DNA of 64,000 nucleotides from Escherichia phage IME178. The stretch's first letter is position 1, and each line of letters opens with the position of its first letter. The stretch is from the sequence record NC_104190.1. One strand, 5' to 3'. The translations under genes and the position numbers were made by a program. The notes under the pieces were generated by a model that saw only the letters and a program-made list of their open reading frames with translations, was not told the origin of the DNA and searched no databases. This document shows positions 20,813-54,963 of this stretch, piece by piece.

Positions 20813-20891
20813 TGGTGGAGAATAACGGAATCGAACCGTTCTGATGTCCTCGGTGCAAGCGAGGTGTCCACTCCATGCAGACCCATTCCCC
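20813..20891 (-). tRNA. tRNA-Ala (anticodon UGC)
   Basis: Anticodon arm CCTCG-CTTGCAC-CGAGG, encoded CCA. Confidence 0.65.
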
Positions 20892-25071: not shown

Positions 25072-25159
25072 TGGTGGGCGTTAATGGAGTCGAACCACTC
25101 GAGTCGCAATGACCAGGGATTTACAATCCCCTCCGCTACCACTTACGGAATAAACGCCC
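25072..25159 (-). tRNA. tRNA-Tyr (anticodon GUA), type II
   Basis: Acceptor GGGCGTT/AACGCCC, anticodon arm GGGGA-TTGTAAA-TCCCT, long variable arm, CCA. Confidence 0.7.
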
Positions 25160-26619: not shown

Positions 26620-26697
26620 TGGTGGCTCCCCGAGGATTCGAACCTACGTACCTTCCGGTTATGAGCCGGGTGCTCATACCATATGAGCTTGAGAACC
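26620..26697 (-). tRNA. tRNA with CAU anticodon (Met, fMet or Ile2)
   Basis: D-stem GCTC/GAGC, anticodon arm CCGG-CTCATAA-CCGG, CCA; T-stem weak. Confidence 0.5.
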
Positions 26698-28984: not shown

Positions 28985-29066
28985 CTTACCGACCGTAGGA
29001 TTCGAACCTACATCTTCCACCAGTTACGGCTTGATAATACCAATTATACTAGGACGGCAGTGTTAC
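28985..29066 (-). other. tRNA-like element, possible pseudo-tRNA
   Basis: T-arm GTAGG-TTCGAAT-CCTAC and D-arm-like AGTATAATTGG, but no anticodon stem found and no CCA. Confidence 0.3.
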
Positions 29067-30617: not shown

Positions 30618-31059
30618 AATAGCCTCGTTTCATCAATTTAAAAATATATTATACAGATAACTTAGTAAATTAGCAAATACATTTTTAAATTGTGAAACTA
30701 GTAAACCGATAAACAGCCTAGAGGCGCCACAGGCCATATCTTATGAGCCATGTACCTTTAATCTAGGGTTTGAATCATCAACGAATACTTTGCATCTTTT
30801 AGCTTTAGAAGTTTAGAAGTTTGAGTTCTTTAAACTTTTCAGCTTTCATACTTAAATGTTGATCTTTGAAGTTGTGTCGGTAATATCAACGACGCTTTGT
30901 TCTTACGTGTCAGCTTAAAAGGCTGGTGTAATAAACATAATCTCCAATAGATTATACTTTATAGTATGGTCAGCGGTCCTATTTAACCTCGTATTTCAAC
31001 CGCTGCTGCGAGGTAAGATGCTTGGGCTTTCGTCTACCGATTTACTAGCTTTTAAATTA

Positions 31060-37795: not shown

Positions 37796-40126
37796 TTAAA
37801 TAGTACAACCGCCTGATGCACAACCGGCTGCTTCCTCTCCTGCACCTCCACCATTTGCGGTATTGAAGTTAGCATAATAGAAAGTTTTCCACCCGTATTT
37901 AACAGCAGTCATGAAATCACGAACTACTACTGGGCCAGGAATAACTTCATTCTCAAACTTGGTGTAGTCGTAGTACATATTCGTACTGATAGACTGACTG
38001 AAGAATTTCTGCATAGTTGCTACCCATTTGATCAACTCGATACGATCTACATCATAAGCCAGTTTATAGCTCATTAACGTTTCCCAATCGGTTGCACCCG
38101 GGGCAATTGCAATTACTTTATTTACTGCACTACCCTTGATAGATACAATCTTACGAGGCGGTTCAATAGAGTTAGTAACACCTAACAGAACAGAAGAACT
38201 TTCTCCCGGCATCTGAGCAGTCAGAACAGAGTTACGCATACCGTATTTCAGAATATCTGCACGCAGAGACTCCCAATCCATTTCTAGACCTACGGATACC
38301 AGTTCATCAACAGTTTTCTTATACGTGTCGATTACTAGAATTCCTTTAGATGGTTTAGTACGATCAAACCACTCACATGCGCCCTGTTCTTTAGCCAGGC
38401 GTACAGAGGCTTTATGCAGGAAGTAAGACAGTTTTTCAGCCTCACGGTGAATCCAGTTACGGGCTTCAATACCTTCGTAAGCCAGACCTTCTGCTGCCAT
38501 TGCACCCGCTGCGTTCATCAGGCCAATACCAACATTACGACGTTTCTTAGCCGTATATTCCATAGTTGGGAACGGATAATCCTGAATTTCAATAATTGTG
38601 TCAACAAATTTCAGAAGGATGTAGCAAGTTTTTTCCCACTCAGCCAGAGATTCCATGCGTCCAAGTACAACACCACCTAAGTTACATAGAGATACTTCAC
38701 CAATATCCTCCGGCTTCATTTGATCAAGCTGCTCTTTTGTCTTATACAGCTCTGTAATGTGGTGGAATGGACGTGTAGGCTGAGTAATTTCAACACAAAG
38801 GTTTGTCATACGGATCGGATCAAGGAAGTTACCGTGACGGTTAGATTCCCCAATGTGGTGAGCATACATACGTCCTGTTTCCATCCTGATACGTAGCCAA
38901 GTATCTAGGATTTCTTTTGCAGAGACCCTAGGAGCTGCTGGAACTGTTTTTCCTTCGTGGTCGATCTTTGTAAGAGATGCCACACGTTTCTCCGCTGCCA
39001 CGTAGATTTCTTCAAATTTAGCCTCGTCATCACTATAAAACGCTTCATGAACTTCTGGAGCATAGAAGTATGACATTAGCGTAATATCTTCGTTTTTAAG
39101 ATAACGTTTTAACAAAAGATTGTTAAAGCTCAGAGAATAATCCATCTTATCGATTTTATTCTCATCTGTAGCACGTTGTTGCTTAACCTGCATTAATTGA
39201 ATGATTTCAGGGTCGAAGTATGGATAAGACACTGTAGCAGAACCACCACGAGTTTGCTGGGTATTGGCCTTTACTGAGCGATCAATGTGTCGATAATATG
39301 GCAGTTTTCCGGAATGCGGGAATGCCCCATTTCGCACCGGATCAGCAATTGATCGGCTTTCAAGATGATACCCGATTCCCGCTCTGGCTGCAACCATTTT
39401 GAAGACGATGTGCTCGGCGGTGTCGATTGAATCCAACGTGTCAGTGGAATCCACGAGGCAGCAACTAGCAAATCCACGATCACTAGAGCGCAGACCAACC
39501 AGTGGCGGCGTAGGAACGTTGATTTTGTGGAGTGACATTGCGTTGTAGAGGTCGATTGCATCTAGAATTGTCCAGTTAGGTTGAGATAGCATCGCCATTG
39601 CCATACCCATGTAGGCGAATTGCGGGGTTTCATAAATTTCACCAGTAGCTATATTACGACGGGAATACTTATCAAAGAACTGCTTCAGCCCACCACTAGT
39701 AAAAAGACGGTCACGATCATGGTCGATAACCTGATTCAGAGCTTCAAATTGCTCATCTGTAATCCATGCACTCATATCTTCCCATGCACCTACGCTAACC
39801 ATGTGATCATGGAAGAAGCGTAAAGAAGGTGGTTCGAAAGAATCATAAAGGCGTTTACGCATTTGCGCAAGACGTAATTCCTTTGCTGGCACATCGTATG
39901 CTGGATTATCTTTGATAAGACTTTCAGCAGCTTTAATTAATGCATCCATCAGAGTGTCGGAATCTACAACCCCTTTAGGTAGGGTTTTTTGAGCAGCCAT
40001 AGTAATGGCTGACCAGCTTACATCAACTGTTTTGCAACCATACTCTGCCCAACCATTGAGTTTTTCAGGAGCAAAGTCTTCTACAGTACCGTCACGTTTA
40101 ATTACTTTTTCAATGCGATGGCTCAT
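37796..40126 (-). CDS. nrdA: ribonucleotide reductase class Ia large subunit
   Basis: ATP-cone start MSHRIEKVIKRDG and NrdA-like core; start moved to ATG 40126 with AAGGAAA RBS. Confidence 0.85.
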   Translation of the reverse strand: MSHRIEKVIKRDGTVEDFAPEKLNGWAEYGCKTVDVSWSAITMAAQKTLPKGVVDSDTLMDALIKAAESLIKDNPAYDVPAKELRLAQMRKRLYDSFEPPSLRFFHDHMVSVGAWEDMSAWITDEQFEALNQVIDHDRDRLFTSGGLKQFFDKYSRRNIATGEIYETPQFAYMGMAMAMLSQPNWTILDAIDLYNAMSLHKINVPTPPLVGLRSSDRGFASCCLVDSTDTLDSIDTAEHIVFKMVAARAGIGYHLESRSIADPVRNGAFPHSGKLPYYRHIDRSVKANTQQTRGGSATVSYPYFDPEIIQLMQVKQQRATDENKIDKMDYSLSFNNLLLKRYLKNEDITLMSYFYAPEVHEAFYSDDEAKFEEIYVAAEKRVASLTKIDHEGKTVPAAPRVSAKEILDTWLRIRMETGRMYAHHIGESNRHGNFLDPIRMTNLCVEITQPTRPFHHITELYKTKEQLDQMKPEDIGEVSLCNLGGVVLGRMESLAEWEKTCYILLKFVDTIIEIQDYPFPTMEYTAKKRRNVGIGLMNAAGAMAAEGLAYEGIEARNWIHREAEKLSYFLHKASVRLAKEQGACEWFDRTKPSKGILVIDTYKKTVDELVSVGLEMDWESLRADILKYGMRNSVLTAQMPGESSSVLLGVTNSIEPPRKIVSIKGSAVNKVIAIAPGATDWETLMSYKLAYDVDRIELIKWVATMQKFFSQSISTNMYYDYTKFENEVIPGPVVVRDFMTAVKYGWKTFYYANFNTANGGGAGEEAAGCASGGCTI

Positions 40127-40268
40127 TTGGCTTTCCTTTTTATAGTTATCAGGATTTAAGGAATATTCTACTTTATTATCGGTCATTAGGCAAATAAAAT
40201 TTTCTGATAGAAAAGGCCCGAGTATTTTCATACCCAGGCCCTGTATATTACCAGTCTAGCTTTTTAGC

Positions 40269-40490
40269 TTATTCAATTACTTTAGCTCTAGCTACTTCTT
40301 TTAATAGAATATCTATGGAGGTGCTCAGCTCGTTATAATTGAATGGTTTATTTGGATTTGAGGTTACAATTTTCCACGCTAGGGTTGTCTTAGGACTTTC
40401 TTCCCCTTCCTTACGTGTAATCATATTAGCAGCACTCAGTGAAGTACGATGTATTTTAGTTTTACGGCTCAGATGAACGACGTTTCCCAT
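40269..40490 (-). CDS. hypothetical protein
   Basis: Start moved to ATG 40490, directly after the phoH stop. Confidence 0.4.
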   Translation of the reverse strand: MGNVVHLSRKTKIHRTSLSAANMITRKEGEESPKTTLAWKIVTSNPNKPFNYNELSTSIDILLKEVARAKVIE

Positions 40491-40491
40491 A

Positions 40492-41244
40492 TTACACCTT
40501 CCCCATGTCTTTAAAGATGTCATAGAATGCTTTAGACTCAACAGAACGAACGTTATCAATCAATTCGATCATTGAGAATGGGGCATTTTCGTATTTCTCA
40601 TAGACTTCCATAAGGAGTGCTAGACCTGAGTCACCTTTAATGTCTTTCTGAGCTATATCTCCGCAGATAATTAAACGGCAGTCTTGCCCTACACGAGTTA
40701 GAAGACAAATCATTGCCTCAACGGAAATATTCTGAGCTTCATCGACAATTACATAGGAGTTGTTGAAAGTTCTGCCACGAGCATGTTCGACAGCCAAAAA
40801 TTTAATTTTCTGACGTTCGACGTATCCCTTATAGGCATGATCGCCGATGGCCCATTTCATACCATCAGCTATTGGCTCCAACCAAGGCTCTAGCTTTTCT
40901 GCTAGATCACCAGGAAGCATACCAAGAGACTTACCTAGAGGTTCATTAGGACGTACGAGGATCACTTGCTCAATATCTGAGTGAATGTCTACGAGTTCCT
41001 GAGCTGCAAGAACGGACGGGATAAAGGTTTTACCAGTACCTGGCTCACCAATACCCACAGTCACTGTGTTGTTCTTGATCATATTGATATATGATTTTTG
41101 CTCGCGGTTTTTACCTACTAGGGATTTAGCAACTGGGTTAGCGTAATCATTAGAAAAATCAGCCTGAATTACGTTATTCTCATACTTGTTGCCACGCTTT
41201 CTTGAACCATTGCGGTTCTCTCTTTTTTGACGTGCTTTTCCCAT
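40492..41244 (-). CDS. phoH: PhoH-like ATPase
   Basis: Walker A GEPGTGKT and PhoH-like core; start moved to ATG 41244 with AGGAG RBS. Confidence 0.8.
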   Translation of the reverse strand: MGKARQKRENRNGSRKRGNKYENNVIQADFSNDYANPVAKSLVGKNREQKSYINMIKNNTVTVGIGEPGTGKTFIPSVLAAQELVDIHSDIEQVILVRPNEPLGKSLGMLPGDLAEKLEPWLEPIADGMKWAIGDHAYKGYVERQKIKFLAVEHARGRTFNNSYVIVDEAQNISVEAMICLLTRVGQDCRLIICGDIAQKDIKGDSGLALLMEVYEKYENAPFSMIELIDNVRSVESKAFYDIFKDMGKV

Positions 41245-41299
41245 AAATAACACTCCTATAGTGTACTTCGCTAACAGAGGATCAACAAAAAGATCTTGT

Positions 41300-41350
41300 T
41301 TATCAACTTACAAATATATTATACCAATATATACAGTAAAAAGCAACTAC
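41300..41350 (-). promoter_or_regulatory. T5-type sigma70 promoter for the phoH/nrd operon
   Basis: Minus-strand TTGCTT (41341-41346), 17 bp, TATAAT (41318-41323), conserved leader. Confidence 0.5.
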
Positions 41351-41538
41351 AATTTTAAATAAGCCTATGATATTGCATTTAAATAAAAAATTTGCTTGCT
41401 TTTAACGTGAGATGTGTGATACTAGATAATCATTTTATATCGCGTGCACGAGTGCGTGATTATACAATTTTTAATAGAAATTGGCAAATAAAATTTTTTG
41501 ACTCAGATCATGTTACAGAACTTTATAGTAAAATATTG

Positions 41539-41567
41539 TTGACATCCGCCCTCGAATGAGTTATAAT
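41539..41567 (+). promoter_or_regulatory. consensus sigma70 promoter upstream of nrdD
   Basis: TTGACA (41539-41544), 17-bp spacer, TATAAT (41562-41567). Confidence 0.6.
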
Positions 41568-41596
41568 AGTAGTCTTAGTTAGAGAAGGAGAGTATA

Positions 41597-43471
41597 ATGA
41601 ATCGCAATGAAGAACTAAAGTATAAAGAAATGCAGGCGTTAATTAGAAACTGCAAAGAGATTATCGAAGGGTCAGCAGATGAAGAGCTGCTGTTTAATAA
41701 TGCCAATAAACCCTCAGAACGTTTCCCTACACAAAGGGATATGCTTGCAGGTGAATTGAGTAAATATCTGATTCTAGAAGAAATGCCAATTCAGATTCGA
41801 AATGCTCATATGATTGGGGATATTCATTTCCATGATGCTGATTATGCTGCATTAGGCATGACTAACTGTTGTCTGGTAGCTCTGGAAGATATGTTGAAGA
41901 ATGGTATGAAGGTTGGTAATGCTGAAATTAGCACTCCAAACTCTATCACTACTGCGGCGGCTATTACTGCTCAGATTATCACTCAAGTTAGCTCCCATCA
42001 GTATGGTGGTACTTCTGTAGACCGCCTTGATGAAGTATTAGCCCCTTATGTTCGTAAATCCTATGACAAAAATCATGCGTTTGCAAAACGTTGGACTAAG
42101 GATGAAGCCAAAGCATCCGTAATGGCTACGGAAATGACTGAGAAAGAAGTCTATGACGCTTGTCAGGGTTTAGAATATGAAATCAATACCATGTTCAACT
42201 CTAATGGTCAGAGTCCATTTATTACCTTTGGTTTTGGTCTAGGAACTTCTTGGGAGGCACGTCTAGTACAGAAAGCAATACTAAAAGTACGTATGGATGG
42301 TTTAGGTATCAATAAACGTACAGCTATCTTCCCGAAACTAGTATTTGTGCTTCGTGATGGCGTTAACATGAAACCAGGAGATGTTAATTATGACATCAAG
42401 AAGTTAGCTATGAAATGTACGTCTGAACGTATGTATCCAGATTATATCAGCTATGATAAGGTTGTGGAAGTTACTGGAGACTATAAAGTTTCTATGGGCT
42501 GCCGTTCATTCCTAGCTGCTACAGAAGATGGTGAAACTGCTGGTCGTAATAACTTAGGTGTTGTTTCTGTAAACTTGCCTAGAATTGCTATCGAAGCTGA
42601 AGGAAATATTGACCTATTCTTTGATTTGCTTGAGCTACGTGTGGATACAGCGTTAAAAGCATTGGAGTGGAGAGTTGATCGCTTAAAATACATCCAAGCT
42701 AAAGCTGCACCCATCCTCTATATGTCAGGAGCCTTTGGGTTACGCTTGGGGCCTGATGAGTATGTATTCGATCATTTCTATAACCGTGCTTCTGTATCTC
42801 TAGGGTATATTGGTTGCCATGAAATGCTACAGTTCATGTTTGGCAAAGATGTAGACACAATGTCCGAGACCTGCATCAAGTTTGTTCAGCGTGTATTGCA
42901 GTACATGCGGGATAGAGTCGATCAGAAGAAGGAAGAAACTAAGTTAGGTTATAGCCTGTATGCTACACCATCAGAATCCCTATGTGATCGTTTTTGTCGT
43001 CTAGACCGTGAATATTTCCCGGAGCATGAAGATATTCTATCCAAAGGATACTATACTAATTCTCATCACCTTGATGTGGAACGTAAAGTTGCTCCCAATG
43101 TGAAATTTGATTATGAGTCTAACTTTACGCCGATCGCTTCTGGTGGATGTATTTCCTATGTAGAGCTACCAGATATGAAACGATTCCCAGATGCACTGGA
43201 ATGGGTTATTAATTATGCTGCTAGTAAAGTTCATTACTTCGGTATTAATACTCCAGTGGATTCTTGTGGTAAATGTGGATTCTTAGGTGAAACAATAGCA
43301 TCCGAAGATGGATTTAAGTGCCCTATCTGTGGTAATCATGACCCCGAAACTCTTGAAGTAACTCGTCGAGTTTGTGGGTATCTTGGAAATCCTGGTGCTC
43401 GTCCATTTAACCCAGGCAAACAGCATGAGGTTATGGGCAGGGTGAAACATCAGGATATTCGAGCTAAATAA
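41597..43471 (+). CDS. nrdD: anaerobic ribonucleoside-triphosphate reductase (class III)
   Basis: C-terminal glycyl-radical motif RVCGYLG; Cys-rich zinc site CGKCG...CPICG. Confidence 0.85.
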   Translation: MNRNEELKYKEMQALIRNCKEIIEGSADEELLFNNANKPSERFPTQRDMLAGELSKYLILEEMPIQIRNAHMIGDIHFHDADYAALGMTNCCLVALEDMLKNGMKVGNAEISTPNSITTAAAITAQIITQVSSHQYGGTSVDRLDEVLAPYVRKSYDKNHAFAKRWTKDEAKASVMATEMTEKEVYDACQGLEYEINTMFNSNGQSPFITFGFGLGTSWEARLVQKAILKVRMDGLGINKRTAIFPKLVFVLRDGVNMKPGDVNYDIKKLAMKCTSERMYPDYISYDKVVEVTGDYKVSMGCRSFLAATEDGETAGRNNLGVVSVNLPRIAIEAEGNIDLFFDLLELRVDTALKALEWRVDRLKYIQAKAAPILYMSGAFGLRLGPDEYVFDHFYNRASVSLGYIGCHEMLQFMFGKDVDTMSETCIKFVQRVLQYMRDRVDQKKEETKLGYSLYATPSESLCDRFCRLDREYFPEHEDILSKGYYTNSHHLDVERKVAPNVKFDYESNFTPIASGGCISYVELPDMKRFPDALEWVINYAASKVHYFGINTPVDSCGKCGFLGETIASEDGFKCPICGNHDPETLEVTRRVCGYLGNPGARPFNPGKQHEVMGRVKHQDIRAK

Positions 43472-45486: not shown

Positions 45487-45903
45487 ATGTATTCTCTAAA
45501 GAAGCTAACCCAGTTTTGGTTAACTTTTGGCGTACTCTCCCAGCTAGTGTATAATGAGGCTATTAACTCTTTGAAAATATGGTGTGAGAATAACGAAATC
45601 TCCTTTGCTTTTAAAGATGATATTGATGAGGCCCCCTGTATTGGTTTAATTGTGCAGGTAGAGGATGGCCTTGAAGAGATTGTGGGCTGGAAAGAGTTAG
45701 ACGAAATGGGCTTAGTTTTTGCGTTAAACTATAAGCTGTTTATGCCTGCTAAGCATCGCCTCGTTGTTAACTATAAAAATAGTGAATCTCCTGGTTTTCA
45801 GGTTAATGAACGTTATGGTTGGTCTTACTTACCGGAAGAAGTAAATGAGGGGATTCAGAAACTTCGACGTTTCGGGTATATGATCCCAGGTTTAACTGCT
45901 TAA
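45487..45903 (+). CDS. hypothetical protein, paralog A
   Basis: Shares PCIG, W-x-EL-x-MGL and C-terminal G-Y-x-PGL motifs with the next ORF. Confidence 0.5.
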   Translation: MYSLKKLTQFWLTFGVLSQLVYNEAINSLKIWCENNEISFAFKDDIDEAPCIGLIVQVEDGLEEIVGWKELDEMGLVFALNYKLFMPAKHRLVVNYKNSESPGFQVNERYGWSYLPEEVNEGIQKLRRFGYMIPGLTA

Positions 45904-45912
45904 GGAGGCAGA

Positions 45913-46302
45913 ATGGAACAAGTATACTGGCGTCAGATTGACCCTAGTTTGGTGAAGCGTGCGGAGAAGCTGCTACAACGTTGGTTGGGGGTAAGACAAG
46001 CCTCCTTCACTTTTCCTGAGCAGCAAACAGATGATCCCTGTATTGGTGTTTTCCTATCCGGCTACGCCGGGGAATGGGAGATGGACTGGAATGAATTGTC
46101 CGCTATGGGTTTAATTGTTGCCCTAAACTTCTCTATATTCCATCCACGTGGTTTGGCCATATGTCGTGTGCCTGATGACGGTTGTTCGCCCCATCTTTTA
46201 CAGGTGGAAGATGATACTTGGGAGTATACTCCGGATATTCTTAAAGAAGCTAAAGAACAATTAAACCGTGTTGGGATCTATGTTCCGGGATTAAATGACT
46301 AA
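45913..46302 (+). CDS. hypothetical protein, paralog B
   Basis: Tandem duplicate of the preceding ORF by shared motifs. Confidence 0.5.
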   Translation: MEQVYWRQIDPSLVKRAEKLLQRWLGVRQASFTFPEQQTDDPCIGVFLSGYAGEWEMDWNELSAMGLIVALNFSIFHPRGLAICRVPDDGCSPHLLQVEDDTWEYTPDILKEAKEQLNRVGIYVPGLND

Positions 46303-46328
46303 TGATTTTTATTAGCTGAACTATGATT

Positions 46329-46356
46329 ACCGAGTCATTTTGGCTCGGTTTTATCC
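46329..46356 (+). terminator. rho-independent terminator
   Basis: Hairpin CCGAG/CTCGG followed by TTTTAT. Confidence 0.45.
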
Positions 46357-46396
46357 GTACTCAAGACCAATGATAGCACCATCCGGAAAATTTTAC

Positions 46397-46425
46397 TTGC
46401 AGGATGCCCAAAATCTTGATATAAT
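46397..46425 (+). promoter_or_regulatory. T5-type sigma70 promoter
   Basis: TTGCAG -35-like, 17 bp, TATAAT (46420-46425), conserved leader. Confidence 0.5.
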
Positions 46426-46925
46426 ATTTATATTGAATTGAGAGACATTAGTAAAAATTGATTTTGCTAATTTTTCTTGTTTACAATCCGCGATACGGAA
46501 CAGTTAGGCTGCCCCATTAAGGGTTGTTTTAACTGTTACATGTTAGTTTTTAAACAAATAGTTAATAGAATACTTAGCGATCTGCGCCCCATAGGAACCC
46601 TGGTAAGGCCTCGAAGCAACCTAGTATGAGGTGGTTGTGAAGTGAGATGGGAGGAGTGAAAAACTACCGAGACGTGATTCTGTAAGTTATATTGCATCTA
46701 GTATGAGCTAGTATATGAAGCATTAGGTGAGCAAATCTGGCTTAGCGGCCATCCTCAAGGATTTGTGCGATATAGCAAAGCAGCAGCGCAGCGTGAAAGT
46801 GGAAGTTGCCACCCCACTTCAGTATTTGCGATTAATTTGTTGAGAAATTGACAGTAACAGTTGTTCTATTCTTTCTGAATAGTCCTAAAGAAAATTTATT
46901 TCATTTCCAACACAGGAGTATTGTT

Positions 46926-49715
46926 GTGTTCTCAATCCTACAAGGTCATGCAGGATTTCATCGCGATTTAGCCACAGGCAATTGGCGAGAAGTTAAAGCA
47001 GAAGATTATCTTTTTGCTAAAAGATTTTCCTCAAAGCATCCTGAAGGTAAACCAGCTTCAATGCCCTTCAAGTTTGATGTAATTGATGAAGTTGATCCTC
47101 AAACCCTAGTAGAAATGCTTCCTCTTATGAGACGTTTAACGTCTGACCCTCATATCGTTGCGGTACGAGGTAGATGTCTTGCACCTAAAAATAATGTGCG
47201 ACGTAAGAAGGGCAACTTTAATGTATCTAACCCAAGTCATATAATTGCAATGGACGTGGATGGTATTGTGGATACAGGTGGTTGTAACAAGTTTGATCTT
47301 GTTGGCATGGCTCGACATATTATTAGAATGTTAAATAGTATTAGTGAGGATATGTTTCCTCTTGATGCAGGGTTTATCGCTCATGCATCGTCTTCGGCTG
47401 GGCTAAAACCAGGTATCCGAATGCACTTAATACTAGAATCTAATGTTAAAGTAACTCAGGGTCAAATCAAATTCTTATTTACATCTATCAATGAAAGTAG
47501 TAGACAAAAGTATGGCTTTGATATTGCCGACTTAGCTTATTACTCTTCCGTACAGCTCCATTATTTTGCAGATCCGTTATTTACCGATGGTATAGTAGAT
47601 CCGTTTAAAGCGGAGGGTGCTTCACGTCTGGTATTTGTTAAAGGTTCTAAAGTAAATTTACCAAATAATCTGGTTGACTATGAAACAACTAGAGGTGAGT
47701 TTAAGGAGGAGTTTTACTCTTTACTCGATCAAATTAAAGGTAAAAAAGCTGCCTCTGATAAAGTAGAGGAAACTATCAGCGAACTAGAAGAAGCTGAGGA
47801 TGGGGTGTACTTGCGTATTATCCCCAAACTATACCATAGAGCATTAGAGGATGGTGTTGATTTTGCATGGCTAGAAAAAGAAATCCGTCCAGCCTTATCA
47901 GAATATATCGCAACTAAAGATAACAGTCGTAATATTCAAGATTACTTTAATAACGGTCGTAAACAGGCTCTGAAAGCATTTGTTAATAATTCTAAACGCG
48001 ATATACCTGATGTTTTAAAAGGTATTCCACTTAAAAAGCTAGAAACTAACTCCCTAGAAACTGATAACTTCTTGAAATTAAATACTGTGCCACCAGAAGG
48101 TTATATGACTTTTGTAAAAGCAAGTCTAGGTACAGGTAAAACCACGGCGGTTGTGCGTTGGTTAGATTCAGGAGTTATTAAAGGTAATTTCTTAGCAATT
48201 ACCAATACTAGAGCGCTGGTGTCTTCAAATGCTAAGAAATTCAGTGCAGGACAATATGATAAGTCTGTAGATATGCTTAATTTTAAGCGTGGTGCTATTG
48301 ACCGTATGTCCACAACTATTCACTCTTTGCATAAGTTCAAGAGTTTTATTGGTCAAATTGATGCAATCTTTATCGATGAATGTGATGCTGTAATGAATGA
48401 CCTGTTATTCGCCCCGGTTGTTAAACAACGTCGTGAGTGTATTCAGGTTCTTCGGGATATTCTTGCAACTGCAAAAATCATTATATTATCAGATGGTGAT
48501 ATTAGTGCAGAAACAATTGAAGCATATGGTTCCTTGATTGAGTTTGATAAACCGGTTGCATTTTATAATCACCACCGTAAGATGTTGTCAAAAGCTCATG
48601 CTTATGAGTTCCCTGATGAATCCAGTATTTGGGTTGCACTTCAGACTTCTCTAGAGATGGGTGAGAAATCTATTCTGGTATCTGACTGTGGCCCTGATGA
48701 GCTGAATGAGAAGGGCATGGCATTACGTCGTAATACGGGTGCGTTAGTTAAGGAAATCCACTCAAACTCTACGTCTGATGTAGATATTCGACGTATTCTG
48801 GATTACACAACTAATGAGCTAATTGACCAACAAATTGATTGCTTATTATGTAGTCCATCCGTAACTAGTGGTGTTGACTTCAACTATTTTGATAACGTAT
48901 TCGTTATTACTAGAACCAGCAACCAAGCGCCAAACATGCGTTTCCAAGCAATCAGGCGCGACCGTGGTGCTCAGAACATCTATTATTTTATTGATAAATC
49001 TACGAGTGGATTCTCCGCAGGTTCTGAACAATATAACATTGATGAAGGTTGGCTGGAGTTAGCACAGCAATTATACGCACGTCGCAGGGAGCTGGAATCT
49101 AGGAACTATACTAGTACTTTACGTTATTACTTGCTTGATCAGGGTGCAACTATTGATATTTTCAGTGAAAGCTGGGGAACTATCGAAGGTGCAGGCAAAG
49201 AGTATACAGAAGAGCGAATCAAAGCCATTTTGTATTCAACTCCTGATTATTGCGCTCCACGTCATGCGGATGCGTATGAAGCTAAACTACTTCTTGTTCG
49301 CTACTATCATCTTGAGTCTATTAAAGATGTAACAGTTGAGCATGTTGAACAATATATCAAGGATAAACCGAATGATCGAGCTGCATTCTTCCATAAAATG
49401 CACGAGATGTTCTGGGAAGATATTAAGAAGTGTTCAAACGTCACTATCAAACCATTCATAGAAGCTCTGAAAGGTAAGAAGAAAGATTTCTTCCTTAAAA
49501 CAGGTCAGAGTGCTAACCCAAAATATGCGAGAATGTATCTTGGTATGATGGGTATTGGTAAGGATATGAACACTGAAAATATTGTAGACTGGTACAGAAC
49601 CTATTGTAAAATCGAGTGTATGCCAATCCCATATAAGTTTATGACTGATGAGGAGAAACATATGCATGATGAAGCAATGGCAGAGCTAGGTGCTAGAAAT
49701 GACAGTGAAGAATAA
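46926..49715 (+). CDS. primase-polymerase (AEP-like) / P-loop helicase fusion, origin-binding-type replication protein
   Basis: N-terminal IIAMDVDG and GIRMHLIL (AEP-like); Walker A GTGKTT and Walker B IFIDECD; start set to GTG 46926 after AGGAG RBS. Confidence 0.6.
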   Translation: MFSILQGHAGFHRDLATGNWREVKAEDYLFAKRFSSKHPEGKPASMPFKFDVIDEVDPQTLVEMLPLMRRLTSDPHIVAVRGRCLAPKNNVRRKKGNFNVSNPSHIIAMDVDGIVDTGGCNKFDLVGMARHIIRMLNSISEDMFPLDAGFIAHASSSAGLKPGIRMHLILESNVKVTQGQIKFLFTSINESSRQKYGFDIADLAYYSSVQLHYFADPLFTDGIVDPFKAEGASRLVFVKGSKVNLPNNLVDYETTRGEFKEEFYSLLDQIKGKKAASDKVEETISELEEAEDGVYLRIIPKLYHRALEDGVDFAWLEKEIRPALSEYIATKDNSRNIQDYFNNGRKQALKAFVNNSKRDIPDVLKGIPLKKLETNSLETDNFLKLNTVPPEGYMTFVKASLGTGKTTAVVRWLDSGVIKGNFLAITNTRALVSSNAKKFSAGQYDKSVDMLNFKRGAIDRMSTTIHSLHKFKSFIGQIDAIFIDECDAVMNDLLFAPVVKQRRECIQVLRDILATAKIIILSDGDISAETIEAYGSLIEFDKPVAFYNHHRKMLSKAHAYEFPDESSIWVALQTSLEMGEKSILVSDCGPDELNEKGMALRRNTGALVKEIHSNSTSDVDIRRILDYTTNELIDQQIDCLLCSPSVTSGVDFNYFDNVFVITRTSNQAPNMRFQAIRRDRGAQNIYYFIDKSTSGFSAGSEQYNIDEGWLELAQQLYARRRELESRNYTSTLRYYLLDQGATIDIFSESWGTIEGAGKEYTEERIKAILYSTPDYCAPRHADAYEAKLLLVRYYHLESIKDVTVEHVEQYIKDKPNDRAAFFHKMHEMFWEDIKKCSNVTIKPFIEALKGKKKDFFLKTGQSANPKYARMYLGMMGIGKDMNTENIVDWYRTYCKIECMPIPYKFMTDEEKHMHDEAMAELGARNDSEE

Positions 49716-53429: not shown

Positions 53430-54203
53430 TTGATGAAAATCGAAATTCCAACACAATGTCCCTCTTGTGGTTCTAAGCTAGATCTTGTCAATGGACAATT
53501 ATTCTGTCGTAATAAGTCCAACTGTCCAGCGCAATCAAGTAAGTTAATTGAGAACTTCTGTACAAAAATGAAGTTAAAGGGCTTTGGTCCAAAAACTATT
53601 GAGAAGCTGGAGCTGACGAAGATTTCAGAACTATTTTACCTAACCGAACAAGATTTGGTTAGAGCCGTGGGTAGCAAGGTTGCCGCTAAGTTAATTAGCG
53701 AATTAAATACTAAAGTTCGCGGAGACATTGACTTTGGTTCAGTTCTCGGTTCTTTAGGAATCCCTCTAATAGGAGAGGTTGCAGCAAAGAAATTATCCCA
53801 AAATTGCAACAGCTTCCATGATGTGAAGGCTGACGGCAAGGCTGGAGAAAACTATAAAGCCTGGCTAAATTCCCCACAAGGCAAGGATGTTATCGAACTA
53901 CCGTGGAAATTCTCAACTGGTGCTAAAGCTAAAACCGTCGTTACTGATGATTTAGTTGCCCAGCCAAATGGAATCGCGGTATGTATTACCGGGTCTTTGC
54001 AAGACTTTGCAAATAGAACGGATGCAACAAACTATTTAGAAGGTCTAGGATATACGGTTAAGAAATCCGTTACCAAAGACGTCAAATACCTGATCTGTGA
54101 GGATGAATCAAAACGTTCTTCCTCATCTTATAAGAAAGCCGAAACGAATGGGATAGAAATCCTGTCGATTAAAGAACTATTGGAGAAAAATAATAATGTC
54201 TAA
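53430..54203 (+). CDS. lig: NAD-dependent DNA ligase, Zn-finger/HhH/BRCT piece
   Basis: CPSCGS...CRNKSNCPAQ zinc finger, helix-hairpin-helix region, C-terminal BRCT-like domain. Confidence 0.8.
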   Translation: MMKIEIPTQCPSCGSKLDLVNGQLFCRNKSNCPAQSSKLIENFCTKMKLKGFGPKTIEKLELTKISELFYLTEQDLVRAVGSKVAAKLISELNTKVRGDIDFGSVLGSLGIPLIGEVAAKKLSQNCNSFHDVKADGKAGENYKAWLNSPQGKDVIELPWKFSTGAKAKTVVTDDLVAQPNGIAVCITGSLQDFANRTDATNYLEGLGYTVKKSVTKDVKYLICEDESKRSSSSYKKAETNGIEILSIKELLEKNNNV

Positions 54204-54963
54204 ACTGAACTGGAACGTAGAAGGTGTAACCGAGTCTCTGAAAGCAAAAGCCACTGCTCTGGGTGTTTCTGTAATCTCTCAAGAACAAGTAGCTGCTATC
54301 GCTGCTGAACTGGCTGCTGAAACTGGCAAAGATGTTACTGCTCGCTCTGTTGGCTCTAAACTGCGTAAAGAAGGTTTTGAAGTACAGAAAGCTAACGAAG
54401 TACAGAAATCCCCGTGGACTCCTGAGCAGGAAGCTGAACTGGTTGATTTCCTGAACGCTCATGCTGGTCAGTATACCTATGCTGAAATCGCTGCTGCTGT
54501 AGCTGGTGGTCAGTTCGGTGCTAAGCAGGTACAGGGTAAGATTCTGAGCCTGGAAATGACCGCTTCTGTTAAGCCAACCGAAAAAGCTGCTGCTGTTCGT
54601 TCCTTCACTCCGGATGAAGAAACTGATTTTGTTAATCAGGTTGTTGCTGGTGCTACTATTGAAGCTATCGCTGCTCACTTCGGTCGTAATATCAAGCAGA
54701 TCCGTGGTAAAGCTCTGAGCCTGCTTCGTGAAGGTCGTATCGCTGCTATGCCGGTACAGGAAACTTCAAGTGCTAAAACTCGTGAAGATTTGTTAGAAGG
54801 TCTGGATCTGGTTAACATGACTGTTGCTGAGATCGCTGAGAAAACTGGTAAGTCTGAGCGCGGTGTTAAATCTATGCTGTCTCGTCGTGGTCTGGTTGCT
54901 AAGGACTATGATGGTGCCGCTAAGCGTGCTAAACTGGATGCAAAAGCTGCGGCTGCTGAATAA
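54196..54963 (+). CDS. abundant DNA-binding protein with internal repeats (D5-like)
   Basis: Three HTH-like repeats; codon usage of highly expressed genes (GCT/CTG/GGT-rich); 255 aa. Confidence 0.55.
   Translation: MSKLNWNVEGVTESLKAKATALGVSVISQEQVAAIAAELAAETGKDVTARSVGSKLRKEGFEVQKANEVQKSPWTPEQEAELVDFLNAHAGQYTYAEIAAAVAGGQFGAKQVQGKILSLEMTASVKPTEKAAAVRSFTPDEETDFVNQVVAGATIEAIAAHFGRNIKQIRGKALSLLREGRIAAMPVQETSSAKTREDLLEGLDLVNMTVAEIAEKTGKSERGVKSMLSRRGLVAKDYDGAAKRAKLDAKAAAAE

Follow-up and report, generated by a model that had tools for sequence, protein, structure and literature searches.

An unannotated structured RNA family in the leader of the helicase gene D2 of T5-like phages

Structured 5′ leaders are known to precede replication genes in several systems, such as the CopT leaders of repA in IncFII and IncB plasmids and the operators of genes 32 and 43 in phage T4. 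A similar arrangement is found in Escherichia phage IME178, a T5-like phage of the family Demerecviridae, in which the roughly 620 bp at positions 46303-46925 of the 64,000-nucleotide (nt) stretch analysed here (NC_104190.1; hereafter, the window) form the gap between a DUF7415 gene and the ortholog of the T5 helicase gene D2. This gap holds a large structured RNA, which we call the D2-leader RNA, that represents an unannotated RNA family. As in the systems mentioned above, its folding could set the dosage of the initiator. Unlike in the repA leaders, however, no promoter for an antisense RNA was called and no conserved small open reading frame (ORF) that might encode a leader peptide was found here. 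Additionally, the D2-leader RNA is far larger than the T4 operators, and its invariant loops match none of them.

Other known RNAs share different parts of this organization. For instance, the stalks processed by ribonuclease III (RNase III), namely the stems of 16S and 23S rRNA, the R sites of T7 early mRNA and the lambda N-leader, also present a long duplex flanking a folded RNA, close to the promoter of an early transcript in the case of phages. The long-range stem of the D2-leader RNA (PL, ~39 bp) is long enough for RNase III, and cleavage is predicted here. By contrast, the T7 and lambda sites each consist of one hairpin, with no conserved domain of 250 nt enclosed, and these stalks have no sequence or Rfam relationship to the D2-leader RNA. 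The transcripts involved in origin activation, such as ColE1 RNA II, the R-loop RNAs of T4 oriF and oriG and those from the T7 primary origin phi1.1A/B, come from loci that, like this one, lie next to replication genes and have AT-rich and then G-rich sequence after the promoter, and ColE1 RNA II is also ~500 nt long and dependent on its fold. Unlike in ColE1, no antisense promoter of the RNA I type was called in the leader, and the GC-skew minimum lies elsewhere.

The ROOL and GOLLD RNAs are likewise phage-borne, several hundred nt long and rich in covarying helices with few invariant nucleotides, but the D2-leader RNA is smaller, precedes a helicase gene instead of lying among tRNA genes and has been found only in T5-like phages. 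Finally, the cobalamin, M-box and T-box leaders resemble it in having a junction-rich 5′-leader domain of ~210 nt, with variable helices and conserved junctions. In contrast to these leaders, it shows no terminator, no consistent masking of the Shine-Dalgarno sequence and no match to an aptamer model, and the swapping of its core between two very different alleles (see below) would be unusual for a ligand pocket such as that of riboswitch aptamers.

Evidence for a conserved fold

That the gap holds a structured RNA had been suggested by an earlier description of this DNA made from its letters and ORFs (the sequence-only reading), and this suggestion is upheld by covariation, by the detection of held-out relatives with a covariance model and by a preference for one strand. 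The + strand of the region folds at -133.7 kcal/mol (z = -2.7) and the - strand at -106.1 kcal/mol (z = -1.8), a difference of 27.6 kcal/mol, and 27 of the 162 predicted pairs (17%) are G-U. Therefore, the feature should be an RNA read from the + strand and not one of duplex DNA.

Covariation is observed both within the lineage of the window and between lineages, as the sequence-only reading had proposed to check in related phages. Within the lineage (19 distinct sequences, using only the thermodynamic fold of the window), both sides have changed in 24 pairs, compared with 7.8±1.5 in shuffled alignments and 2-9 in slid controls, while the unbiased count of G-U versus A-C variants (9 versus 6) is weakly informative. 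For the comparison between lineages, a covariance model of 249 positions and 68 pairs, R2, was trained only on the allele of the window and one relative with 68% identity (an Erwinia/Pantoea-phage-like contig); the other lineages were held out because MAFFT could not align the alleles. With E-values that are to be taken as rough, R2 found full-length matches in the held-out Pectobacterium phages DU_PP_V (89.9 bits, E 4e-27) and My1 (59.5 bits, E 2e-17), in Klebsiella-type phages (36 bits, E 1e-9) and in the allele carried by T5 (18.5-22 bits, E 2e-5 to 4.5e-4). These matches were always at the homologous position and on the + strand. In fact, besides the window, 42 loci from at least six lineages match R2 upstream of, and co-oriented with, a D2 homolog. 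In the resulting alignment (27 distinct sequences), 96% of the cells are paired and compensatory changes are present in 54 of the 68 pairs, versus 24.4±2.8 in shuffled and 13-19 in slid controls.

Two further data sets point in the same direction. A manual helix table of eight lineages, which is supportive only because its helices were hand-picked, contains 298 Watson-Crick, 39 G-U and 1 A-C pairs, with compensatory changes at 37 of 42 helix positions. A small covariance model of the P7 hairpin, R1, whose seed alignment was made with N-padding, has a single match in the 64-kb window (25 bits) and recovers two lineages outside its seed; all 100 cells of this seed are paired and eight of the nine outer P7 pairs covary.

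The layout of the fold consists of two hairpins (P1 and P2), the long-range stem PL and, atop it, a multi-helix domain of ~250 nt that includes helices P3 to P8 (Table 1). The PL duplex has an energy of -38.4 kcal/mol (z = -6.6), and equivalents formed by unrelated sequences are predicted in six of seven lineages, with energies of -29 to -43 kcal/mol and z close to -6 in five of them and of -2.7 in locus L074. In P3, both sides have changed in seven of the nine pairs, and the span from strand to strand stays at 206-214 nt in seven lineages. P2 shows compensatory changes in the Klebsiella-type lineage (GG/CC to AG/CU and GAU/AUU to GCAU/AUGC), and P8 a UA to GC change within the lineage of the window itself. 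The complementary segments that had been picked out from the letters proved to be real helices: GCGCCCCATAGG... corresponds to P3 and P4 and GGCTTAGCGGCC to the P7 hairpin.

While the helices vary, some single-stranded motifs are invariant: the P7 loop CUUAGCGG (46741-46748), GAGA(A/C)GUG, CUGUAAGU, RAAG and the P8 loop GUUGCCAC. The junction that follows P4c reads GAGACGUG...CUGUAAGU in IME178, and the motif GAGA(A/C)GUG...CUGUAAGU is common to the allele of the window and to the Klebsiella-, Pectobacterium- and Serratia-phage lineages. The short motif GCUUAGCGGC is found in every lineage, within a hairpin of differing stem.

Some observations concern possible partners of the P7 loop. The 3′ strand of P1 contains UUUGCUAAU (46462-46470), which is complementary to UUAGCGG in this loop. 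The window-type, T5-type, My1 and DU_PP_V lineages all keep this segment, whereas those of Klebsiella and Providencia type do not. Judging from the complementarity, both segments could form a long-range contact or a switch. A long-range contact of the P7 loop with UUGCUAA was set aside because only some lineages have it. The idea that the P7 internal loop, which has UCCU in some lineages, is an anti-Shine-Dalgarno sequence was discarded for lack of conservation. Elsewhere in the window, GCCGCTAAGC (54916-54925) is a perfect 10-nt complement of the P7 loop at the 3′ end of the ORF at 54196-54963, on the mRNA-sense strand (~0.1 chance matches expected). P1 is replaced or broken by a ~90-nt insertion in some relatives (replacement in L013 and L035), and its region contains a triplicated GCTAATTTT in Salmonella phage oselot (L004, ~1659-1689), where it is annotated as repeat_region.

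Table 1. Features of the D2 leader and the gene that follows it (positions in the window).
Feature	Position	Strand	Basis or remark
Intrinsic terminator of the upstream operon, hairpin ACCGAGTCA/TGGCTCGGT then TTTTAT	46329..46354	+	Sequence; homologous site annotated in the HASG4 and T5 records
Early sigma-70 promoter, -35 TTGCAG, 17 nt, extended -10 TGATATAAT	46397..46425	+	Consensus match; predicted
P1, 5′ hairpin UUAGUAAAA/UUUUGCUAA	46440..46478	+	Folds; dispensable or variable
P2, hairpin GAUACGGAACAGUUAGGCUGCCCCAUU	46492..46518	+	Sequence kept in most lineages
PL closing stem, 5′ strand	46529..46574	+	Pairs with 46821-46863, ~39 bp, few bulges
Core domain, P3-P8, 68 base pairs	46571..46820	+	Covariance model R2, 299.5 bits
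P3, 5′ strand GCG-AU-CUGCGC	46577..46587	+	Pairs with GCGCAG-CGU, 46786-46794
P4 sub-domain, closing helix CCCAU/AUGGG and three inner hairpins	46588..46651	+	R2 and within-lineage covariation helices
P4c hairpin, then conserved junction GAGACGUGAUUCUGUAAGU	46653..46687	+	Covariation helix; lineage comparison
P5 helix (46688-46695 with 46767-46774), enclosing P6 (46696-46728) and P7 (46731-46766)	46688..46774	+	R2 helices
P7 hairpin: variable outer stem, inner stem NNCU-UAGC-GGNN, 3′ internal loop	46731..46766	+	Model R1
J5/3 junction GCAAAGCAGCA (GCAAAG...), with conserved RAAG	46775..46785	+	Manual lineage comparison
P8 hairpin AAGUGG-AAGUUGCCACC-CCACUU, loop conserved	46797..46819	+	6/6 pairs covary
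PL closing stem, 3′ strand	46821..46863	+	Long-range duplex prediction
P9 hairpin CUAUUC-UUUCU-GAAUAG	46866..46882	+	Folds
Translation-initiation region: Shine-Dalgarno AGGAG 46914-46918, GTG 46926, weak hairpin AACACAG/UUGUGUU	46909..46930	+	Pairing probability ~0.75
D2 ortholog, 929 aa, superfamily 2 (SF2) helicase core and N-terminal domain with DxD...H motifs	46926..49715	+	Pfam, PDB and PHROG 3712 matches

Two alleles and their distribution

The unusual feature of the D2-leader RNA is that two interchangeable alleles share one fold. According to blastn, the flanks of the interval (its positions 1-264 and 551-623) are common to all Tequintavirus and Epseptimavirus genomes, while the central 285 nt (46567-46852) are represented in T5 and many other phages by a stretch of equal length with no blastn similarity. 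Consistent with this, identity between IME178 and T5 is 78-97% in the flanks and 43-47% in the core. The same layout is obtained when each allele is folded separately. The interval is matched by 533 phage records, nearly all from T5-like phages of Salmonella, Escherichia and Klebsiella, and the window-type allele is present in ~160 public records and the T5-type allele in ~260. In L015, Epseptimavirus-like flanks surround a core of the window type, and therefore the core moves as a cassette. A comparison of L024 (T5), L015 and L029 likewise indicates that recombination has exchanged the core without its flanks in some phages.

The full core is found in T5-like phages of Escherichia and Salmonella (both alleles), in Klebsiella-type phages, in Pectobacterium phages My1 and DU_PP_V and in the Erwinia/Pantoea-phage-like contig mentioned above. 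Only the P7 hairpin is recognized in Providencia-type phages, Proteus phage Stubb and Aeromonas phage TS3. In the last of these (L042), the D2 homolog is preceded by ~1.5 kb (~720-2308) in which no gene is annotated and no ORF reaches 70 aa; CUUAGCGG is the loop of two hairpins there, at positions 1198 and 1442. In Stubb (L045), perfect consensus sigma-70 promoters at 1705-1733 and 2435-2464 flank an ORF-free region of ~700 nt that bears the P7 hairpin, and a degenerate second GCCUUAGCCG motif is present at ~2412. In Serratia phage Kamaji, Vibrio phages and more distant relatives, neither R1 nor R2 gave a match, even unfiltered, and motif searches were negative. There was also no match in E. 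coli genomes and plasmids. Scanning bacterial genomes for the P2 motif yielded 91 matches in unrelated taxa, which is uninformative, as ~70 would be expected by chance according to our own estimate.

In some relatives, the intergenic region contains HNH or putative homing-endonuclease genes, or the ~90-nt insertion, at its 5′ edge, as in L003/L016 (AKFV33; 1016-1468), S132 (H32), L013, L026 and L035. These elements lie after the DUF7415 gene and ahead of the promoter, or immediately past P1, and always outside the covarying core.

The D2-leader RNA is a new family, absent from Rfam 15, although of a known general kind, that is, a large structured phage leader or noncoding RNA. None of the 4227 models of that release, which include ROOL, GOLLD, riboswitches, group I and II introns and ribozymes, matches 45500-47500 with E up to 10. 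At the Rfam gathering score, only tRNAs are detected in the entire window, and a search of nine relatives gave one spurious match, outside the core, with 28.7 bits for a gathering score of 100. No description of the region was found in the literature searched, including papers on T5 and BF23.

The locus and its neighbourhood

The order of elements at the locus is terminator, promoter, leader and D2 gene. The placement given by the sequence-only reading is correct, as 46302 is the last position of the upstream ORF and the GTG at 46926, preceded by a Shine-Dalgarno sequence (AGGAG, 46914-46918), is the start codon of the D2 ortholog. The promoter that it had called at 46397-46425 is missed by a simple sigma-70 scan because its -35 box fits the consensus at only three of six positions. 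Nevertheless, it can be confirmed as a predicted promoter: it matches the consensus, the AKFV33 record and three of T5 ('T5P32') annotate its homologs as T5-consensus or early promoters, and it is kept in the distant Klebsiella-, Pectobacterium- and Serratia-phage lineages. With transcription starting, as we infer, at ~46432, the leader would be ~494 nt long, compared with the ~480 nt estimated earlier. The ~470 nt that follow the promoter are unannotated in all three T5 records.

This leader is, as had been claimed, unusually long: excepting the tRNA cluster, 46303-46847 is the longest ORF-free gap of the window, and at all Demerecviridae loci examined a long stretch devoid of ORFs separates the D2 homolog from its upstream neighbours, even though these differ. 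The description of the region as GC-richer is right for the core (46575-46825), with 47.8% GC compared with a window mean of 38.7% and within the top 2% of all 251-nt windows, but not for the entire interval (38.0%) nor for its AT-rich 5′ part (32.4%). The statement that it contains no ORF longer than 30 codons was inaccurate, since mechanical ORFs of 50 aa (TTG start) and 38 aa (GTG start) exist on the + strand and one of 53 aa on the - strand, although none is conserved. The stops and lengths of these ORFs vary among near-identical relatives, which also present 1-nt indels, and we found neither in-frame or length conservation nor a third-position substitution bias or a PHROG family for them. 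The small-ORF hypothesis was consequently rejected. Additionally, the records of WP85, Stubb and other phages annotate two or three 'hypothetical proteins', and even a 'tail tube protein', across the leader; such annotations are very probably spurious. As to the two points on which the sequence-only reading was said to depend, the region is conserved in relatives, in structure and not in sequence, and no homology-supported small gene was found in it.

The protein encoded downstream had been described as a primase-helicase of origin-binding type. Its helicase core is confirmed, whereas the origin-binding label derives only from the similarity of that core to herpesvirus UL9. Indeed, the T5 ortholog, D2, is annotated as T5.108, 'replication origin binding protein', but the Pfam domain Herpes_ori_bp covers residues 394-533 and the UL9-type origin-binding chains in PDB match the same stretch, and hence the resemblance to UL9 is limited to the helicase core. 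In the N-terminal domain, D110, D112 and H167 are invariant, and the invariant DxD, SxSxG...H and D residues found within the first 300 aa presumably correspond to an archaeo-eukaryotic primase signature. No Pfam or NCBIfam domain was detected in the N-terminal 390 aa, and a single-sequence structure model of this domain (predicted local distance difference test score, pLDDT, of 34.7) was too poor to bear on the primase label. The Walker A motif (residues 399-406) agrees with the published position in D2, and the published D2 study argues that this protein is a replication initiator.

Upstream of the leader, two adjacent paralogs (45487-45903 and 45913-46302), each with two DUF7415 repeats, are homologs of T5.106 and T5.107, and a Sir2-like gene precedes them. 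Elsewhere in the window, 22 tRNA genes are found on the minus strand between 18.0 and 28.5 kb. Two minus-strand tRNA-like sequences (26623-26697 and 28987-29058) are recognized by the Rfam tRNA model and not by ARAGORN, while the tRNAs at 20813-20891 and 25072-25159 are listed by ARAGORN and absent from the Rfam table. Further ORF-free gaps are present at 30642-31017 (376 bp, outside the tRNA cluster) and at 41254-41596 (343 bp), the latter within the region of the cumulative GC-skew minimum.

Possible roles of the leader RNA

We consider a role in cis on the expression of D2 or of the replication operon, with a probability of about one half, as the leading explanation. According to this proposal, the interval would contain no gene and would be transcribed from the early promoter as a 5′ leader of ~490 nt of the D2 mRNA, which would act as RNA. 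The folded domain may then serve as a binding platform for a phage factor, a host factor or a small ligand and, once bound, may set the expression of D2 and of the genes for replication that follow, by acting on translation, on mRNA stability or on read-through. PL would be an RNase III site that separates the domain from the D2 message. The cis role is placed first because the adjacency and orientation of RNA and gene are fixed despite changing upstream neighbours, and because conserved junction and loop nucleotides combined with variable helices are the typical pattern of binding platforms. A 'regulatory' role is plausible. Moreover, RNase III processing at the ~39-bp stem is likely on the basis of the predicted duplex, as PL, which is formed by sequences flanking the domain, reaches the length of such a stalk (at least ~20 bp).

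Some observations weigh against this explanation. There is no terminator-like site on the + strand at 46433-46925, so that the leader has no attenuator: transcription attenuation would need an intrinsic terminator ahead of the start codon, together with an alternative anti-terminator, and P9 is not a classical terminator because it has no U-tract. Masking of the ribosome-binding site or the start codon is not consistent across lineages either, since the Shine-Dalgarno site is unpaired with probabilities ranging from 0.01 to 0.77 and its pairing partners differ. A simple riboswitch is disfavoured for these two reasons. In Proteus phage Stubb, the second promoter sits between the P7-bearing region and the D2 homolog and, therefore, the RNA need not belong to the D2 message there. 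In addition, R2 has no match in the Providencia, Proteus, Serratia, Aeromonas and Vibrio lineages; a fold common to all Demerecviridae lineages is not supported by this model. Finally, the R2 alignments are fits to the model itself and its E-values only approximate, although the hold-out design and the within-lineage result stand independently of this.

The same data can be accommodated by other explanations. A tentative one, to which we give a rather low probability, is that the product is a stand-alone stable noncoding RNA: RNase III would cut the ~40-bp stem and free a domain of ~300 nt, as in rRNA precursors, and the freed RNA would act in trans. It might, for instance, be a decoy, a sponge or a scaffold for a protein of the host or the phage, perhaps to counter a host defence. 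The long-range duplex that surrounds the whole domain in six of seven lineages, the fixed distance between the P3 strands, the separate promoter of the D2 homolog after the RNA in Stubb and the lack of a consistent link to the ribosome-binding site would all fit, as would the sharply bounded and reshuffled core cassette (e.g., in L015), a pattern expected under diversifying selection. However, no terminator or 3′-end signal of its own was found, the RNA always adjoins the D2 homolog on the same strand, and the 10-nt complement of the P7 loop at 54916-54925 was rated within chance expectation. We are more doubtful about a replication-origin transcript, in which an origin beside the initiator gene would be activated when transcription that starts at the early promoter crosses the AT-rich stretch and enters the structured G-rich one, with the RNA forming an R-loop or primer or recruiting the D2 primase-helicase. 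The preferred origin is reportedly near the middle of T5 DNA in electron-microscopy studies, and the D2 locus is found at 48.9% of the T5 genome. Moreover, the region is directly upstream of the sole initiator-like helicase gene, and its promoter is followed by a stretch with 32% GC and then by a G-rich segment with a GC skew of up to +0.30; the argument of the D2 paper that this protein initiates replication also agrees with an origin here. By contrast, the signs of an iteron/DnaA-type origin are missing except for the AT-rich stretch: direct repeats in the region are only two-copy matches at chance level, there are no tandem repeats or iterons, and no DnaA box is found within 46303-46925. 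Likewise, no antisense promoter was called inside the leader, and the cumulative GC skew has its minimum near 41-42 kb (~40000-43000), where its sign also changes as the genes pass from the minus to the plus strand. The 'origin-binding' name, as discussed above, is based on the helicase core alone. An R-loop origin would also not need ~68 covarying pairs, which weakens this explanation without refuting it, since ColE1 RNA II is structured too. An improbable reading makes the RNA itself part of the initiation of T5 replication, proposing that the folded transcript is recognized by the D2 primase-helicase, or is its primer, and that promoter, RNA and D2 constitute the long-sought origin module of T5, with the two alleles as specificity variants.

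It is very unlikely that the element works only as DNA and that its RNA structure is incidental, whether as a site for replication initiation or protein binding, as a hotspot of recombination or homing, or through a cruciform or hairpins in single strands. The homing-endonuclease genes and the ~90-nt insertion at the 5′ edge in some relatives, together with the behaviour of the core as an exchangeable cassette, might suggest so, but those insertions are outside the covarying core, the 17% of G-U pairs would be A-C mismatches on the other strand or in a cruciform, the + strand folds better by the 27.6 kcal/mol given above, and a five-branch fold with conserved junction nucleotides is unlike the sites found in duplex DNA. 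The presence of one or more small protein-coding genes is scarcely credible. Although mechanical ORFs of 33-53 codons exist and the records of some relatives contain 'hypothetical proteins', the ORFs differ in length and stop and suffer 1-nt indels among near-identical relatives, lack an excess of third-position changes and belong to no PHROG family, and the T5-type allele keeps the RNA helices without detectable sequence similarity to the allele of the window.

T5 is a classical model phage for which, to our knowledge, neither a replication origin nor the way in which the replication genes are controlled has yet been defined. The presence of a large foldable RNA at the head of D2, in the middle of the genome, that is shared by T5-like phages of Escherichia, Salmonella, Klebsiella, Pectobacterium and Erwinia/Pantoea is relevant in this context, and it also puts right the very probably spurious 'hypothetical protein' annotations of many genome records. 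Furthermore, its two alleles, of equal fold and length and unrelated sequence, are exchanged among phages and thus constitute a natural experiment. If the proposed module of promoter, RNA and D2 were true, T5 would have an initiator system dependent on RNA, for which no counterpart has been described among tailed phages. More generally, binding by D2 or excision by RNase III, if true, would tie RNA structure to the control of phage replication.

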